This document shows positions 2,802 to 10,285 of a DNA stretch of 10,285 nt, one piece after another. Source of the DNA: an uncultured Bacillota bacterium (GTDB taxonomy: Bacteria; Bacillota; DTU025; MWDF01); the NCBI GenBank assembly GCA_963823655.1, contig CAWGMK010000011.1:1-10285 (forward strand). Direction: 5' to 3'. Position 1 is the first letter of the stretch; every line of letters begins with the position of its first letter. Position numbers and translations under genes: made by a program. The notes beneath the pieces were generated by a model. That model was not told the origin of the DNA. It saw only the letters and a list, made by a program, of their open reading frames with translations, and did no database searches.

Positions 2802-3097
2802 CGTGCCGAGCCCCTTTTCAAAAAACTAGTGTGTTGAAGAACGCCAAACCTGCGATAATGCTACATTGATAGCATATTGCTTGCCCTAATGCTAGATAGG
2901 AGAGGGCTCAACCAAACGAACCGCTTAAGATTCCGAATAACTGTCGCCATTTTGTGAAAATGAAAAACGAGCCAGGCTTGTTGCCAGTTAGTTGCCTTTC
3001 GCACTTTAGGAGCTCATCAAAATTACTTTAAGAAATATCGGATTTTGAGCTATCATCATTAGTATGACGGATAGGGCCATTCGTTGGAGGTGATTGT

Positions 3098-3944
3098 ATG
3101 CCTGACATTTAGGCCTCAGCGCAGATTTTCCGCCAATATGAGAATCTGAAGCCGGTAGGAAAAAGGCTCGCCAATTACATCATGGATAACGAAAGGGAAG
3201 TCATACACCTTTCGATTACGGAGCTTGCCGAGAGGGCCGAAGTGAGCGAGACTACGGTAATAAGATTTGCAGGCAACTGGGGTATGAGGGCTATCAGGAC
3301 TTTAAAATCAGGACGGCCCAGGGGATGGTGCCGGAACTGAGCAATATACATGAGGACCTTTCCGAAGGCGACAGTCCGAGATCGGTCTTGAAGAAAGTGT
3401 TCGCCTCCTCCATAAGCGCGATCGAGGATACACTTCAAATCATTGACGAGGTAGCCTTCGACAAGGCGGCAACAGCCATCGCAAATGCTACAAGGATAGT
3501 GTTTTCGGGTGAAGGCGGGTCAGGGATCATAGCAAAAGACGCAGAACATAAATTCATAAGGCTGGGGATTCCCACATGCTCCAACCTGGATCCTTATATG
3601 AGGCTGGCAGCTGCGACTTTGATGAAGCCGTCTAAGTAATGTTGAGCATTTCCCACAGCGGCAGCACGAAGAATATCGTTGAAGCATTATCATTGGCAAA
3701 GAAGAGCGGTGCTACAACTATTTGCATCACGCAATACCAGAAGTCTCCCATTACCAAAGTCGCCGATATTGTGCTGACGGTATTCTCGAAGGAAGTTGAG
3801 TACAGGAGCGAGGCCATGGGCTCGCGTATAGCCCAGCTATGTGTAATCGACAGCTTGTATGTGGAAGTAGCCAAGAGGCTAAGGGAGAAATCATGGGATA
3901 CGATCAAGAAGGTGCGCGAGGCGCAAGTGACTCTGAGGTACTAG
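3098..3944 (+). CDS. RpiR/MurR family transcriptional regulator (HTH + SIS domain; frameshifts near 3110, 3268, 3635)
   Basis: GGAGGTG RBS and ATG at 3098. The HTH reads LANYIMDN..EVIHLSITELAERAEVSETTVIRF/CRQLGYEGYQDFK. The SIS domain reads IVFSGEGGSGIIAKDAEHKFIRLG, LSISHSGSTKNIVEAL...GATTICITQYQKSPITKVADIVL and SRIAQLCVIDSLY. Confidence 0.92.
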
Positions 3945-4054
3945 TGCCAACGGCTAAATATCAGCGCTCATCATATTACCCCACTCTGACTAATGGAATG
4001 TAGGCTATCGGGCGTGTATCCCAGGCTGGAACTATGCCCAGCATCCAAATACTT

Positions 4055-4180
4055 TGTGAAGAAAAATATATTCTCTTTTTTCGTTTTTAGAAAGGAATAT
4101 TTTATTTTTGCGTGTATACTTATATATAAGTTTCGATAAATATTGATCGAAATCATTCTCGATGAAAATAAGGGAGGTAG
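4055..4180 (+). promoter_or_regulatory. AT-rich operon promoter region with candidate operator palindrome (4131-4152) and RBS
   Basis: Very AT-rich intergenic DNA with candidate -10 TATACT at 4115-4120, the palindrome TTTCGATAAATATTGATCGAAA (20/22 symmetric) and AGGGAGGT RBS before ATG 4187. No clear -35 identified. Confidence 0.55.
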
Positions 4181-4186
4181 CAGATC

Positions 4187-5142
4187 ATGTTCAAGAGGTT
4201 GACGATCCTGAGCCTGGCAATTCTAATGGCAGTAGTATTAGCGGGTTCGGCAATGAGCGCGTATCCTACGCAGCCCATCAACTACCTGATTGCCTTCGCA
4301 GCAGGCGGCGAATCGGATATTACTGCACGTATGCAGCAGAAGTACCTTGAGCAGGAGTTAGGCGTCCCTATCGTAATGACATACAAGACGGGCGGCGGCG
4401 GCGCTGTTTGCTGGGCAGAGCTTGTCCGCTCCAAGCCGGACGGATACATCATAGCAGGCGTTAACGAGCCGCACACAATGCTTCAGCCCATGCAGAGCAA
4501 CAGCGGTTATGAGACAAGCCAGATCCAGAGGGTTGCACTCTTCCAGTTCACCTCCCGCGCGCTGATCGTTCGCAAGGACAGCCCTTTCAAGACTCTTCAG
4601 GACCTGATCGACTTTGCAAAGAAGTATCCCGGTATGGTGACGGTAGGCGGCAGCGGCAGCTGGGCGTCGACCCACTTTACAACAATGTTGCTTAAGAAGG
4701 CAGCCGGAATAAAACTAACATACGTTCCTTTCGCAGGTTCAGGCGACACAAAACCCGCAATCCTTGGTGGTCATGTATCGGCGATAGTTGCACATCCAAC
4801 GACTGCAGTTGGTATCAAGAAAGACATAAGGATACTGGCAGTAGCGGCAGAGACGCGCTCTGCGGTGTTCCCGGATGCTCCTACGTTCAAAGAGCTTGGT
4901 GTCCCTGGCGTCATTGAAGGTTCCTACAGAGGCGTCGCGGTGCCCCCCGGCACTCCGAAGGACATTGTGAACAAGCTTGCTGCGGCCTTCAAGAAGGCTA
5001 ATGAAGACCCGGTATTTGTTAAGACCATGACGGATCTGGGCTTCGACCTCCTGTGGAAGGGCCCCGAGGAATATGAAAGCTGGATCAGGAGAGGACAGTT
5101 TATTACACAAACCTGCTTAAGACCCTCGGTTACACAAAATAG
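4187..5142 (+). CDS. tctC: Tripartite tricarboxylate transporter substrate-binding protein (TctC/Bug family)
   Basis: Signal peptide, then YPTQPINYLIAFAAGGESDITAR, YKTGGGGAV..AELVRSKPDGY, YVPFAGSG, ILGGHV and FPDAPTFKELG, all Bug/TctC hallmarks. A missing base at ~5087 would restore WIKERTVYYTNLLKTLGYTK-TAG(5140-5142), so the ORF-track end at 5209 is likely an artefact. Confidence 0.93.
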
Positions 5143-5162
5143 CTTCTGGACAGGCTTCGTAA

Positions 5163-5180
5163 GGGGGGCGAAAGCCCCCC
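5163..5180 (+). terminator. GC-rich GNRA hairpin between tctC and tctA (mRNA-stabilising or partial terminator)
   Basis: GGGGGGC-GAAA-GCCCCCC is a perfect 7-bp stem, 20 nt after the reconstructed tctC stop, with only a weak U-tract (ATTTG). Confidence 0.65.
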
Positions 5181-5225
5181 ATTTGAATGCTCCTATGAAG
5201 ATTAATTAATGATTGCGAGGGACGC

Positions 5226-6736
5226 AAGAGGGCTCTTGAAGGCCTTCTGGAAATTTTAACTCCTCAAATTCAACTTTACATCCTGCTGGCGACCATAGGT
5301 GGGATGATAGTTGGCGCATTACCTGGGCTTACTGCGACAATGGCGGTTGCCGTAATGGTCCCGCTGACTTTCGGAATGGAACCGGTGACAGGCCTGGCAG
5401 TCCTTGGCGCTATTTACATGTCGGCAATATATGGCGGATGCTTCTCGGCCATCCTCATAAACACACCGGGAACTCCAGGTTCCATAGCCACCTGCTTTGA
5501 TGGCTACCCCATGTGCGTAAAAGGCGAGGGAATGAGGGCTATTGTCGGCGCGACAGTCGGCTCCGTAATAGGCGGCGTCGTGAGCCTGGTGGCCCTTTTG
5601 ATTAGTCGCCCCCGCTTGCTGCCATATCCTTCAATTTCGGACCCCCTGAATACTTCTGGCTTGCCGTATTTGGGCTTACCGTTATGGCCAGCATGGGAGG
5701 AGAGGGCTCGTTGGTAAAGACTTTCATGGCGGGAGGGCTCGGGCTTCTTATCAGCTGCATAGGAATGACCATAATGGGCGGGCAGCTGCGTTTGGCTTCA
5801 ATAACTACCACATGCAGGGCGGCATTGACCTTGTATCGGCGATGATCGGCCTCTTTTCATCCCTGAGGCGCTGAACTATATGAGCTCCTTCGGCTCCATG
5901 TACAAGATTTCCGAAGTAAAGAAGCCAAAGGGCGCAATCTGGGCTGCGGTCAAAGAGACGCTTGCTCTTAGGGCTACGCTGGTGCGCTCTTCTCTAATAG
6001 GATTGATCGTAGGCATTTTACCGGGAGCAGGCGGCACTATCGCCAACATGATTGCCTACAACGAAGCGAAGAAGGCTTCAAAAGACTCGGCAAAATTCGG
6101 AACTGGGCTGCTTGAAGGTGTAGTCGCACCGGAGACTGCGAACAACGCGACAGTCGGAGGCGGGCTAATACCGACGCTTACACTGGGCGTTCCGGGCACC
6201 ACGGTCGCGGCTGTCATCTACGGGGCTTTGCTATTGCACGGCCTAAGGCCCGGCGCTGAACTGTTCACCTCAAACGGCAAGATCGTTTAGCGGTCATGTT
6301 CGCCATACTCATTTCCACAATAATGATGGGCGTTATTGGGCTTCTCGTAGGCATACAAATGTATAGAGGAGTTTCCAAGGTGCCGACGAATTTCATGGCG
6401 CCGGCAATAGTCGCACTGTCTATTGTGGGAGCATATGCGGTCAGGAACAGCAGCATGGATGTAATAGTGATGCTTGTGTTCGGGCTCCTAGGATACATCC
6501 TCAAGGAGATGGGACTTGCTCCAGGCGCTCTGGTGCTCGGCCTCATATTAGGCCCCATCGCCGAGGCAGGCTTCGTCAGATCGAGCCTAATCGGTCAGGC
6601 AGCCGGCTATTTCAACATTTTCGTCAAGAGGCCTATCAGCCTGATACTGATAGCCCTTACTCTCCTGTCACTTATCTGGCCAATAATCACAAATTACCTG
6701 TCCAAACGGGGTAAGGGGAGGGTTTCAGGTGCATAA
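5226..6736 (+). CDS. tctA: Tripartite tricarboxylate transporter permease TctA (several frameshifts; start approximate)
   Basis: GMIVGALPGLTATMAVA, YGGCFSAILINTPGTPGSIATCFDGYPM, FGPPEYFWLAVFGL, GILPGAGGTIA, GVVAPETANNATVGGGLIPTLTLGVPG, HGLRPG and LGLILGPIAEAGFVRS are the canonical TctA motifs. They are spread over ORFs 5304..5717, 5880..6290 and 6296..6736. Confidence 0.93.
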
Positions 6737-7183
6737 GAAGAGAAATATCGACCTTATTGCCGCAATTTTCGTGGGGGCTGTAAGCCTTGTCTTCTGGACC
6801 CAGCTTAAGGAGATCAACTCCCCCATGGATGTGATCTTCCCCAAGAGCGTACTCATAGTAATGTTTGCTCTTTGTGCGATTTGTTGATCAAGGCGTTCAC
6901 CAAGCCTGAGCTCAAAGAGCTGTTCGCTATAAAGAACAGGAACATGGTCGCTTTGGGTGCGGTATGCCTTGTGGTATGGGTGGCGCTTCTCGGAGTAACT
7001 GGTTTCATTTCAATAAGCGTGTTGGCATTTACGCTGCTCTCCTGGATCATGCAGGATAAGCAGAAAAGGACCGTGAAGTCGGCCATCAACTCCGTCATCG
7101 TAGGCAGCATACTTATCGGGCTTATCTACCTGGTGTTCGTAAAATTGCTGCTTGTTCCGCTTCCAAAGGGCTTCCTTATTTAA
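6729..7183 (+). CDS. tctB: Tripartite tricarboxylate transporter small membrane subunit TctB (frameshift ~6880)
   Basis: A GTG start overlapping the tctA end follows a GGGGAGG RBS and gives MHKKRNIDLIAAIFVGAVSLVFW...IFPKSVLIVMFALCAI. It then joins ORF 6872..7183, with GVTGFISIS and the typical TctB C-terminus YLVFVKLLLVPLPKGFL. Confidence 0.88.
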
Positions 7184-7220
7184 GGGTTTGAAGTAAATAG
7201 CAGATTAGGGGGGTGTACCC

Positions 7221-8107
7221 TTGTTGCCGAAAAGGATTGGCTTCATAGGCTTCGGCGAGGCAGCTTCAGCATTTGCGAAAGCTCTCTCCGAACATGGAGC
7301 AAGCATAGAGGCCTTCGACATCCTGATCAATACTGAGGACGGCCTAAAGGCGCTGAAGCACAGAAGCGATGGCGTAGATGTGAGGTTTCGCAAACTCGAA
7401 GATGTCATTAGTGATTCCGAGCTGATCATATCTACCGTCACTATGGACGTTGCTCTGGCTGCTGCTCGAAACTGCGCCGGGCTGCTGTCTTCCTCAAAAG
7501 TATATTTCGACCTTAATTCCACTTCCCCAAAAATAAAAATCGAGATATCGGAGACCATCAAAAAAACCGGGGCTGGCTTTCTGGAAGGCGTAGTCCTCGG
7601 CGCGATAGGGGCCACCGGAGCTGCCACCAAAGTGCTACTCGGCGGCGATTTGGGCGAAGAGTACGCGGTCAAGCTTAAGGAACTGGGGCTAAACACCTCT
7701 TTTTTCAGCAGGGAGATTGGCAAAGCCTCCACTTTCAAGATGATAAGAAGCGTTTTCAGCAAGGGCGCAGAAGCACTGCTGCTGAGATGCTCCTTGCCGG
7801 CAAGAAAGCTGGCCTGGAGGAGGAGCTGTGGAAGGACATAGTTGGGTTCATGGAATCCAAGCCGTTTGGCAAGATAGCCTCCAATTGGATACAGACACAT
7901 GCGGTAGCTTGCGAGCGCAGGTACTATGAGATGCTCCAGGTCTGCGGGACAATGGAAGAGCTGGCAATCGAGCCTATAATGGCCACTGCCACCGCAGAAG
8001 TGTTCAAACACTCCGTTGAAGCGGGCCTGAAGAATAGTTTCCGGGACAAGGCATCAAGCGTAAATGAGGTAATAGACGTGCTTTCCCAACATGTGGGCAA
8101 TATGTAG
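7221..8107 (+). CDS. NAD(P)-dependent oxidoreductase, 6-phosphogluconate/3-hydroxyisobutyrate dehydrogenase-like (DUF1932-type C-terminus; frameshift ~7782)
   Basis: Rossmann motif [21 protein letters not shown], catalytic-Lys segment [19 protein letters not shown], and C-terminal HA..RYYEM. ORFs 7221..7841 and 7787..8107 join. TTG start with AGGGGG RBS. Confidence 0.85.
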
Positions 8108-8118
8108 GAGAATCATCG

Positions 8119-8988
8119 ATGAAAAAGACGACGCAACTAAAAACGCTGCTGAAATCACCTCAGCTTGGTTCATACTCGAAGCGCATGATGGCATGAGTGC
8201 GAAAATCGTCCAGGAAGCGGGCTTCAAAGGGATTTGGGGAAGCGGGCTTACGATATCGGCAGCTATGGGAGTGCGCGACAGCAACGAAGCAAGCTGGACG
8301 CAGGTTGGAAGTTATGGAGTTCATGAGCGACGCCGTGGATATTCCGATTCTCCTCGACGGCGATACCGGTTATGGCAATTTCAACAACTTCCGCAGGCTC
8401 GTCAAGAAGCTTAAGCAAAGAGACATCGCGGGAGTGTGTATCGAAGACAAGCTTTTCCCGAAGACGAACTCCTTTATTAACAGCACGAACCAGCCGCTTG
8501 CGGACATACGCGAGTTCGCTAACAAGATAAAAGCGGGGAAGGACACGCAGTCAGATCCCGATTTCTGCATAGTCGCCCGCATTGAATCGTTCATCGCCGG
8601 CTGGGGCCTCGAGGAGACTTTGAAGAGGGCCCACGCCTACCACGAAGCAGGAGCCGATGCCCTGTTGATCCACAGCAGGATATCCAAGCCCGATGAAATC
8701 CTGGCATTCATGAAAGAGTGGAAAAACACCTGCCCCGTGGTCATTGTGCCGACCATGTATTATGACACGCCGGCAGAGGTGTTCGAAGAGGCTGAATCTC
8801 GCTCGTAATATGGGCAAATCACCTCATGAGAAGCAGCATTGCAAGCATGAAGGAAACAGCCGCGCAAATTGCATCAGAACGGTCCATAAGCAGTGTGGAG
8901 AAGAAAGTAGTCTCCGTAAAGGAGATATTCCCGCCTGCAAAACGCGAAGGAGCTTGAAGAAGCCGAGAGGATCTATTTGCCCTCCTGA
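8119..8988 (+). CDS. pepM: Phosphoenolpyruvate phosphomutase (PEP mutase), single-domain (frameshifts ~8168, 8306, 8795, 8931)
   Basis: AGGAG RBS. Reconstructed as [94 protein letters not shown]...[13 protein letters not shown]...[15 protein letters not shown]...LIHS...[10 protein letters not shown]...VIWANHLMR...VSVKEIFRLQ...YLPS. The diagnostic EDKxxxxxNS motif is at 8443-8472. Confidence 0.93.
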
Positions 8989-9052
8989 GCAAACGGATAA
9001 CATTACTTGGTTTCGATTAATTTCGGGTATGACAGCTTTGGAGGCGTTTCCG

Positions 9053-10089
9053 ATGAATGCCAAAGTCATGGTTGAGGTAGATTGGCTGAGGAAGATCTCC
9101 CGTAGAATCCTTGAGATGCGCGGCGTAAGACAAGGATTGCTCCGATGTTGTGACCGACATGCTCGTCGAGGCGGACCTGTGGGGGAGGAATTCCCATGGA
9201 ACAATGCGCCTCGCTAAATGGGCACCCGGGATCGAAGAGGGAACGATAGCCAAGCGCAATGAGATGAAGCTTATTAGAAGAAGCGGCTCCATCGAGTGGT
9301 TCGAGGGGAATATGACTCTTGGCCCCGTCTCCGCAATGACGGCGATTGAATTGTGCCTGAAAAGGGCAAAGGAATCCGGAGTGGCAATCTGCTGCGTATC
9401 CGGCGCGTCCCACATAGGAATGCTGGGCTATTACGCCCAGAAGGCAGCCCTCAAGGGGCAAATCGGGATAATAATGTGCAATACGGAGCCTGCCATGGCA
9501 CCTTACGGAGGTTTAGATAAGGTGATTGGCACAAATCCGATTGCGGTGGGGATACCTTCCGGCGTTAATCCGCCAATAGTGCTTGATATGGCAACTACAG
9601 TGCATGCAAGGGGAAGAGTTGTGGAAGCCCTCGAAGAGGGCGAAGAGTTGCCGGCAGGATGGGCTGAGGACGCCTTCGGTGAGCCGACAATAGATCCAGC
9701 CAAGGCGCTTGAAGGCTCACTGCTTCCCGACCGGGGGCGTAAAAGGATACGCCCTGGCAATAATAGTGGACATACTCTCCGGCGCCCTCTCCGGAAGCTC
9801 GGTCGGCACAGGCGTGCTCGGCTCTCACGATATGAGCAAGCCTTCCTCAAGAGGGGACTTCTACATGACAATAGACCCGGACCATACAGTAGGCCGTTCA
9901 GCGTTTGAGGCATCTGTTATGGACCTTGCGGGACAGATCAGGTCTTCAAGGACTAAAGAGGGAATGTCGATAATGCTGCCGGGCGACCCGGAAATGGACG
10001 AAAGGCAGAGAAGGCTTGAAAAGGGCATACCGATGGTACAGTCGATAGTGCAGAAGCTCGAGATGCTGGCCAGCATGCAAGCAAAGTAG
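9053..10089 (+). CDS. Ldh_2 family (malate/L-lactate/sulfolactate/ureidoglycolate) 2-hydroxyacid dehydrogenase, ComC-like (frameshifts ~9130, ~9730)
   Basis: GGAGG RBS and ATG 9053. Motifs LVEADLWGRNSHG, SHIGMLGYYA, NTEPAMAPYGG...IGTNPIAVGIP, VLDMAT, PTIDP..AL.G.LLP.GG.KGYALA and MLPGDPE across ORFs 9150..9908 and 9709..10089. Confidence 0.92.
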
Positions 10090-10166
10090 TGCAAACATAC
10101 ATCCGTGTCCGGCTTGGCTGAGCAACAGGCAAAATAGCAAATCCGTAAGACACATCCGAAATGACG

Positions 10167-10220
10167 GACGATGACGGCTTTCTCAGTGGGGTTCAGACCT
10201 GAGAAGGCCGTCATCGTTTA
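10167..10220. terminator. Long inverted repeat, probable bidirectional terminator closing the operon
   Basis: ACGATGACGGCTTTCTCAG-(12 nt)-CTGAGAAGGCCGTCATCGT is a 19-bp stem with one G-U pair, followed by TTAAATCTCTTGTTT. Confidence 0.7.
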
Positions 10221-10234
10221 AATCTCTTGTTTAG

Positions 10235-10285
10235 TTAAACCTGCTCGTAATCAGTATAATCAGGCTCATCGAATATGAAGCGGAA
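10235..10285 (-). CDS. Possible 3' end of a convergent gene
   Basis: The minus frame FRFIFDEPDYTDYEQV-TAA is open from the window edge and stops just before the hairpin. Too short to identify. Confidence 0.3.
   Translation of the reverse strand, partial: FRFIFDEPDYTDYEQV

Follow-up and report, generated by a model that had tools for sequence, protein, structure and literature searches.

A phosphoenolpyruvate mutase gene beside a solute importer and two dehydrogenases in an uncultured Bacillota bacterium: a candidate operon for the catabolism of a C3 phosphonate

Is a phosphoenolpyruvate (PEP) mutase gene, pepM, that lies among genes for uptake and oxidation there to make a phosphonate or to consume one? 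The question is raised by a seven-gene unit in an uncultured Bacillota bacterium (assembly GCA_963823655.1), in which a regulator gene of the RpiR type, the three genes of a tripartite tricarboxylate transporter (TTT), a dehydrogenase gene of the DUF1932 type, pepM and a gene for an Ldh_2 dehydrogenase follow one another on the same strand. The unit lies on contig CAWGMK010000011.1 (hereafter C11), the whole of which (10,285 nt, 10.3 kb) was analysed and is referred to as the window; the host genome bin (G000) comprises 2.3 Mb in 13 contigs and is 97% complete. We read the unit as an RpiR-controlled operon for the uptake and catabolism of a C3 carboxy-phosphonate, most likely 3-phosphonolactate, which is the best supported of the readings weighed here and to which we give an even chance of being right. 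Across more than one lineage, and in either of two gene orders, PepM is linked to an importer that depends on a solute-binding protein (SBP), to an RpiR regulator and to two dehydrogenases. From this setting we infer what the substrate is, which way the flux runs, how the dehydrogenases divide the work and any gain in ATP.

On sequence criteria, the pepM of the operon encodes a true PepM, as a preliminary description of this DNA had called it, and neither a phosphonopyruvate hydrolase nor a lyase. The protein scored was that of the intact pepM in the copy of the locus that the bin carries on its contig C7, the window fragments matching PF13714 in pieces only. It reached 396.6 bits on the PEP mutase model TIGR02320 (cut-off 319.55), as compared with 387.2 for its counterpart in a second genome of the genus (G002), and 238 bits on the phosphonopyruvate hydrolase model TIGR02321, under the cut-off of 374.4. 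The alignment of the C7 protein to the Mytilus PEP mutase of solved structure, 1m1b, runs from end to end (289 residues, E 3.6e-129). The two share an identical 10-residue string at the EDK-X5-NS motif, and the C7 protein carries Asn at the discriminating site, in contrast to the Thr of the solved hydrolase 2dua (EDKTFPKDTS). The split between mutase and hydrolase has been put down to one active-site substitution (PMC3266647), EDK-X5-NS is used in surveys both as a criterion for PepM and as a marker of phosphonate production (PMC8931226), and the equilibrium of PepM is given as more than 500-fold toward PEP (PMC12871164).

The preliminary description had proposed that synteny of pepM with a TTT, an Ldh_2 dehydrogenase and an RpiR regulator in other genomes would support a catabolic unit. 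Such synteny exists, as the full unit in G002 and as a related unit in another gene order at two metagenomic loci (L094 and L095), but it is rare. Among 41 related genomes, a close PepM was found only in G002, besides a 559-aa form in G038. G002 carries the identical seven genes in identical order between different flanks, with protein identities of 54-83%. A gene for an HpcH/HpaI-family aldolase lies there in divergent orientation upstream of rpiR (L093, G002:C11, 6126-6926, minus strand), and is not at that position in G000. L094 and L095, with 84.5% identity between them, were the two relatives returned by a metagenome scan with the DUF1932-type dehydrogenase. Here the order is PepM-type gene, dehydrogenase, tctC, tctB and tctA, followed by the Ldh_2 gene on the opposite strand. 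The PepM-type protein of these loci is 38-40% identical to that of the operon, carries the string EDKKFPKDNS and falls below both curated cut-offs (for L095, 312.2 versus the 374.4 of the hydrolase model). Identities of the remaining proteins to those of G000 are 46-47% for the dehydrogenase, 36% for TctA, 30-33% for Ldh_2 and 47% for TctC, the last to be compared with the 28-29% identity of G000 TctC to its only two paralogues in its own genome.

A further, more distant setting came from a survey of neighbourhoods in species genomes, taken at the 80 PepM loci nearest to ours, a single one of which (L002, in the Paenibacillaceae metagenome-assembled genome G409) has a DUF1932-type dehydrogenase beside PepM. 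PepM is 77% and the dehydrogenase 47-56% identical to ours, and both stand at the end of the locus (L002/L118, contig C37), in the order PepM, a 349-aa protein that matches nothing in Pfam or NCBIfam, an arylsulfatase and the dehydrogenase. Over its whole extent, which takes in two additional stretches, the locus also encodes AraC and ROK regulators, sulfatase-family proteins (three in all), a GFO/IDH/MocA oxidoreductase, two SBP_bac_1 proteins, a xylose-isomerase-like protein and a CBM96 protein. Of the sulfatases scanned, one scored above a cut-off, as an arylsulfatase (664.6 bits versus 481), and the locus gave no Pfam match to a glycosyltransferase or nucleotidyltransferase. This is a degradative-looking setting, and the locus may serve to degrade a sulfated or phosphonylated glycan.

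The features of the unit in the window are listed below; domain calls come from Pfam scans of the open frames, with gene boundaries taken over from the intact C7 copy.

3098..3944, plus strand: rpiR, regulator gene (HTH_6 and SIS domains by Pfam), with 1-nt deletions near 3267 and 3633
3945..4186, plus strand: AT-rich spacer between rpiR and tctC with a ribosome-binding site, the presumed promoter/operator region of the operon
4187..5142, plus strand: tctC, periplasmic solute-binding protein of the TTT (PF03401, 168 bits), with a 1-nt deletion at 5086
5229..6736, plus strand: tctA, large permease (PF01970, in four frame pieces, profile positions 2-423)
6729..7183, plus strand: tctB, small permease (PF07331), placed after tctA (order C-A-B) and split in the window
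7221..8107, plus strand: NAD(P)-dependent dehydrogenase (NAD_binding_2 and DUF1932 by Pfam), with a deletion at 7783
8119..8988, plus strand: pepM (PEP_mutase family), with four indel events within the gene
9053..10089, plus strand: Ldh_2 dehydrogenase, ComC-like (PF02615), with insertions at 9127 and 9726
10168..10217, plus strand: hairpin of 19 bp with a U-rich tail, a probable terminator separating the operon from a convergent gene

Gene content, order and common direction are thus as first described, with every Pfam piece on the plus strand. The three TTT families PF03401, PF01970 and PF07331 occur together in the window, on C7, in G002 and in L095. The regulator has the RpiR/MurR architecture, with an N-terminal HTH_6 and a C-terminal SIS domain; its best NCBIfam matches, to MurR/RpiR and HexR, are all under cut-off, and no equivalog cut-off is reached. 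The SIS domain of RpiR proteins usually senses phosphorylated ligands, which fits a catabolic role for the operon.

The unit had also been described as framed by an AT-rich promoter and a terminator. The AT-rich spacer is there, with AAGGGAGG ahead of the tctC ATG as a good ribosome-binding site, and so is a strong hairpin (-37.3 kcal/mol, z -6.3, with 0 of 200 shuffles as good), which a consensus terminator scan missed, reporting nothing 3' of Ldh_2 and yielding no more than chance. The promoter did not emerge from a sigma-70 consensus scan, which gave zero plus-strand matches in the spacer and 9 in the window against 7.3 expected by chance; a sigma-70 promoter was set aside on the ground that this count is no higher than in shuffles. 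A leader riboswitch was likewise rejected, no Rfam family reaching its gathering score anywhere in the window.

What the unit lacks is equally relevant to its function. In agreement with the preliminary description, Pfam scans of the unit and its flanks found no phosphonopyruvate decarboxylase (Ppd), aminotransferase, synthase, nucleotidyltransferase or glycosyltransferase. Over the whole of G000 there is no Ppd (best score 20.6 bits against a cut-off of 312.5); PhnW and PhnX give nothing over cut-off, and PhnJ is absent too. Elsewhere, in contrast, a Ppd-like gene is common company for PepM, lying beside it at 47 of the 80 closest loci and at 26 of the 37 with at least 5 kb on both sides.

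The DUF1932-type enzyme, whose gene is found beside pepM in G002, L094, L095 and L002, is a candidate phosphonolactate dehydrogenase of the beta-hydroxyacid dehydrogenase fold. Its NCBIfam matches, to tartronate semialdehyde reductase, are weak (26.6 bits versus a cut-off of 340.75), its best solved relatives are uncharacterised proteins, protein atlas names are generic only, and nearly all of the 847 relatives in its family at E <= 1e-30 are unnamed. The Ldh_2 protein, by its sequence a member of PF02615 that we do not file as ComC, is a candidate second phosphonolactate/phosphonopyruvate oxidoreductase. Its best NCBIfam match is to the L-sulfolactate dehydrogenase model NF040650 (302.7 bits, short of the cut-off of 500) and its best solved relative is the L-sulfolactate dehydrogenase 2x06; sulfolactate, the substrate of this nearest characterised relative, is the sulfonate analogue of phosphonolactate.

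A close published parallel to this arrangement is a sulfonate system, slcHFG-slcC-comC of Chromohalobacter salexigens, Roseovarius nubinhibens and Taurinivorans muris, which combines a TTT importer with two dehydrogenases that interconvert the enantiomers of sulfolactate via sulfopyruvate (PMC10507020, PMC5812351). As in that system, tctB follows tctA, and of the two dehydrogenases that use NAD(P) one belongs to the Ldh_2/ComC family; the operon would likewise carry a 3-substituted lactate to a 3-substituted pyruvate, with phosphono compounds as the counterparts of the sulfo compounds. Unlike it, the operon has a true PepM between the dehydrogenase genes, no linked SuyAB and an Ldh_2 protein below the NF040650 cut-off. 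SlcC may share the fold of the operon dehydrogenase; the literature searched held no link of SlcC to the hydroxyisobutyrate dehydrogenase family.

Among phosphonate systems, PalB-PalA of Variovorax sp. Pal2 catabolises phosphonoalanine via phosphonopyruvate and has its own transporter and regulator (PMC3266647). The operon would share with it the route through phosphonopyruvate and the cleavage of the C-P bond by an enzyme from the superfamily of PEP mutase and isocitrate lyase. However, PalA splits phosphonopyruvate by hydrolysis, giving pyruvate and phosphate, and its residue at the discriminating site is Thr, whereas the operon enzyme has Asn and scores as PepM; and entry in the Pal system is through a transaminase, with a LysR regulator, whereas the operon has dehydrogenases, RpiR and a TTT. 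The VlpB branch of valinophos biosynthesis resembles the operon in that PepM adjoins a dehydrogenase interconverting phosphonopyruvate and phosphonolactate, an activity for which the operon enzyme is a candidate. VlpB, however, is of the 2-Hacid_dh_C type and occurs in clusters with tailoring genes, whereas the operon has enzymes of the DUF1932 and Ldh_2 types, an importer and no tailoring genes.

Under the catabolic reading, TctC would bind the C3 phosphonate in the periplasm and TctA/TctB would import it. The DUF1932-type dehydrogenase and the ComC-like Ldh_2 enzyme would then oxidise phosphonolactate to phosphonopyruvate, and each may take one enantiomer, like SlcC and ComC on sulfolactate. 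PepM would turn phosphonopyruvate into PEP, the thermodynamically favoured direction, breaking the C-P bond while the phosphoryl group is kept. The fuller proposal, in which a fermentative bacterium would conserve energy from C-P cleavage by importing phosphonolactate through a TTT, oxidising it with two stereo-complementary dehydrogenases and running PEP mutase in reverse to retain the phosphoryl group in PEP, is more tentative, and we place it somewhat short of an even chance.

The catabolic role is argued from gene context, and several observations weigh against it. Another contig of G002 encodes a bona fide Ppd (399.6 bits versus 312.5), and the operon PepM is the sole PepM of this genome, so PepM in that genome could feed biosynthesis. 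No phosphonate neighbours were found at this orphan Ppd, and G002 has no PhnW or PhnX over cut-off. The Ppd gene itself (L096, G002:C9, 8943-10091, minus strand) sits among genes for a subtilase, hypothetical proteins and an outer-membrane protein. The PepM phylogeny also brings in company that looks biosynthetic. In a tree of the quick kind (the careful search being unfinished), which held 81 of 83 rows after two were dropped for a best match of under 250 residues or one containing a stop, the operon PepMs form one clade (SH-aLRT 93) with a Ppd-linked locus and three Chloroflexota loci. In one of the latter (L004), PepM has as neighbours a 2-hydroxyacid dehydrogenase resembling VlpB, a glycosyltransferase and a FemAB/GNAT protein. 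The L004 region (3982-16187 of a Chloroflexota metagenome-assembled genome), in which pepM lies directly 3' of the gene for this PGDH-like dehydrogenase, also encodes a kinase-like protein and an amidohydrolase, the glycosyltransferase being of the GT4 type; it is a candidate phosphonolactate-derived biosynthetic cluster.

By a rough estimate, the path between PEP and phosphonolactate is roughly reversible, and the direction of flux therefore depends on context. The preliminary description implied that the unit lacks any enzyme to pull PepM toward phosphonopyruvate; this stands for Ppd, synthase and aminotransferase, but the reduction of phosphonopyruvate to phosphonolactate by a dehydrogenase is itself a published biosynthetic pull (PMC8942020, PMC12871164). 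Either dehydrogenase of the operon, though of another fold, could act in this way. No characterised close relative exists for the DUF1932-type dehydrogenase, and the Ldh_2 score lies under the sulfolactate dehydrogenase cut-off, as given above.

The module is, moreover, rare, and with one of 80 PepM loci and two metagenome relatives the independent cases in its support are few for that reason. A search of 401 sampled genomes of its own phylum with the dehydrogenase (E <= 1e-20) gave 8 matches including G000, only that of G002 being close, and in the phylum of L046 none of 401 sampled genomes matched the dehydrogenase at E <= 1e-50. In plasmid searches, matches to the dehydrogenase (at most 33% identity) and to Ldh_2 (at most 42%) were all in unrelated catabolic contexts, which were tricarballylate, aromatic cleavage, SuyAB-TauE (Haloarcula) and TTT-RraA (Sinorhizobium).

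An alternative account of the whole locus is a biosynthetic operon, in which PepM would make phosphonopyruvate, one or both dehydrogenases would pull it to phosphonolactate, genes elsewhere would use or modify the product and the transporter would import an unrelated compound or a precursor. We consider this unlikely, although it is the strongest of the alternatives. The two papers just cited present the formation of phosphonolactate by VlpB-type reduction as an accepted early branch point of phosphonate biosynthesis, the sister PepM of L004 has the company described, the orphan Ppd of G002 could use the product of PepM, and a pepM with EDK-X5-NS is taken to mark production. The neighbourhood of pepM nevertheless lacks the hallmarks of such clusters, with no Ppd, FrbC-type, PalB-type or VlpB-type (2-Hacid_dh_C) gene beside it, and in none of G000, G002, L094 and L095 does the unit contain or adjoin a gene for tailoring, activation, attachment or export. 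An uptake transporter that depends on an SBP, with an SBP that has been kept with the module (to judge by its closeness to the L094/L095 protein over its own paralogues), and a regulator of the RpiR type speak against biosynthesis; a single reduction needs no two dehydrogenases of different folds, and G000 has no Ppd.

A second alternative, to which we assign a distinctly smaller chance, is that the operon serves the uptake and racemisation of sulfolactate, or of another C3 sulfonate or carboxylate, in the manner of slcHFG-slcC-comC, with PepM in a side role or acting on a sulfonate analogue. Sulfopyruvate is an inhibitor that binds PEP mutase. The order TTT(C-A-B)-dehydrogenase-...-Ldh_2 is that of the slc-comC systems (PMC10507020, PMC5812351), sulfolactate dehydrogenases are the best named relatives of Ldh_2, and SuyB-like GD_AH proteins are encoded in both G000 and G002. 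The GD_AH genes, however, occur in all seven genomes of the genus that were searched and are unlinked to the operon; they are not tied to it, because the seven include five members without a close PepM. PepM, for its part, is kept in the module in two PepM lineages that differ greatly and in both gene orders, and has the full signature of the enzyme together with its end-to-end alignment to a characterised PEP mutase. No DsrA was found in G000, and the 302.7 bits of Ldh_2 remain well under the 500 of the sulfolactate model.

A different question is whether the window copy of the operon is itself functional, since every one of its genes is interrupted. The frameshifts noted beforehand are indeed present in the contig. 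Over its full length C11 matches G000:C7:199168-209356, the alignment showing 86.4% identity, 1261 mismatches and 94 gap openings, and on C7 each gene except tctB is one open frame (RpiR 282 aa, TctC 318 aa, TctA 503 aa, dehydrogenase 295 aa, PepM 300 aa and Ldh_2 377 aa, the last with a later start likely). From position 3050 onward, the window differs from C7 by 23 indel events, 16 of them 1-2-nt deletions and 7 insertions; those in tctA include deletions near 5603, 5790, 5857 and 6293. Deletions of 1-2 nt are a common type of consensus error in long-read assemblies. Substitutions between the copies, in contrast, are concentrated at third codon positions, the mismatches at positions 1/2/3 being 7/0/82 in rpiR, 12/4/92 in tctC, 17/7/189 in tctA and 9/4/93 in pepM, and the proteins of the window are 89-98% identical to those of C7 (95% for TctC). 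This third-position bias and protein identity indicate that both copies evolved under purifying selection.

Public sequences bear on the same point. Contigs one letter off the window (X1 record 4 and X2 record 11) have an extra A at 5086, and contigs of run X3, which are several letters per 100 off the window, show the C7 state at 5793, 5857, 6293, 8112, 8167, 8305, 8793, 8930 and 9127. The check with near-identical sequence covers the one site at 5086; parts of the window that are uncovered in runs X1, X2 and X6 are uninformative. Altogether 8 sequencing runs match the window, all with small shares (at most 0.13), for which reason we claim no habitat. One contig from an RNA library (904 nt) spans the tctC region 4146-5049 with 28 differences, which is no proof of transcription. 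Split genes are found elsewhere in the bin too, with tctB on C7 (L092, 11799-12262) broken into two frames, such that the 153-aa TctB of G002 aligns in two frames to both G000 copies, and with split genes on contig C12, including pieces resembling an aldehyde:ferredoxin oxidoreductase; indel errors in the assembly therefore extend beyond C11.

The frameshifts thus most likely arose as errors of the consensus, in a contig that has low coverage and comes from a co-assembled variant. C11 is most likely a poorly polished record of another version of the locus, 86% identical to that on C7, for which no evolutionary account of the frameshifts is needed. That they are genuine and C11 a decaying duplicate of the operon, as at least one frameshift in every window gene and a long-ORF cover (at least 200 aa) of 0.38 on C11 against about 0.8-1.3 for most contigs of the bin might suggest, is the least probable of the alternatives, a pseudogene reading that we judge unlikely given the third-position bias, the predominance of 1-2-nt deletions, the extra A and the C7 states in public contigs, and the split genes on C7 and C12.

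Two stretches of the window depart from the overall identity of the copies. In the last ~1.3 kb (9001-10285), which holds Ldh_2 and the 3' end, identity to C7 is 99%, as opposed to 75-94% elsewhere; this may reflect a collapsed strain bubble or a recent exchange by recombination. The most divergent region, at 75-90% nucleotide identity and with many indels, holds three genes upstream of rpiR on the minus strand (292-2804; on C7, L092 5447-7894), which encode proteins of 286, 217 and 246 aa on C7 without any Pfam or NCBIfam match.

How new would a catabolic PEP mutase be? The idea as such is not, because the title of a 1998 report by Ternan, McGrath and Quinn announces PEP phosphomutase activity in a phosphonoalanine-mineralising Burkholderia cepacia; that work reportedly identified no gene or operon, and its substrate is said to have been phosphonoalanine. 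The novelty claimed in the preliminary description is reduced to this extent. The titles, abstract openings and text passages covered described no pepM gene cluster for catabolism, no entry by phosphonolactate and no link to a TTT, although supplementary cluster lists, such as the 'pre-Ppd other' families of PMC8942020, may include this type. The genetically defined phosphonopyruvate routes in the literature covered all free phosphate by hydrolysis (PMC3266647 for PalB-PalA).

The consequences of the claim, if it is true, can be stated. By the mutase route the phosphoryl group would be retained in PEP, making a phosphonate a source of carbon and energy, beyond its use as a source of phosphorus, which matters for anaerobes. 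The widespread and uncharacterised family of DUF1932-type dehydrogenases, of which the 847 relatives counted above are a measure, would gain a substrate class. And part of the pepM genes now counted as those of phosphonate producers would belong to consumers, which would challenge the use of pepM as a pure marker of production (PMC8931226).

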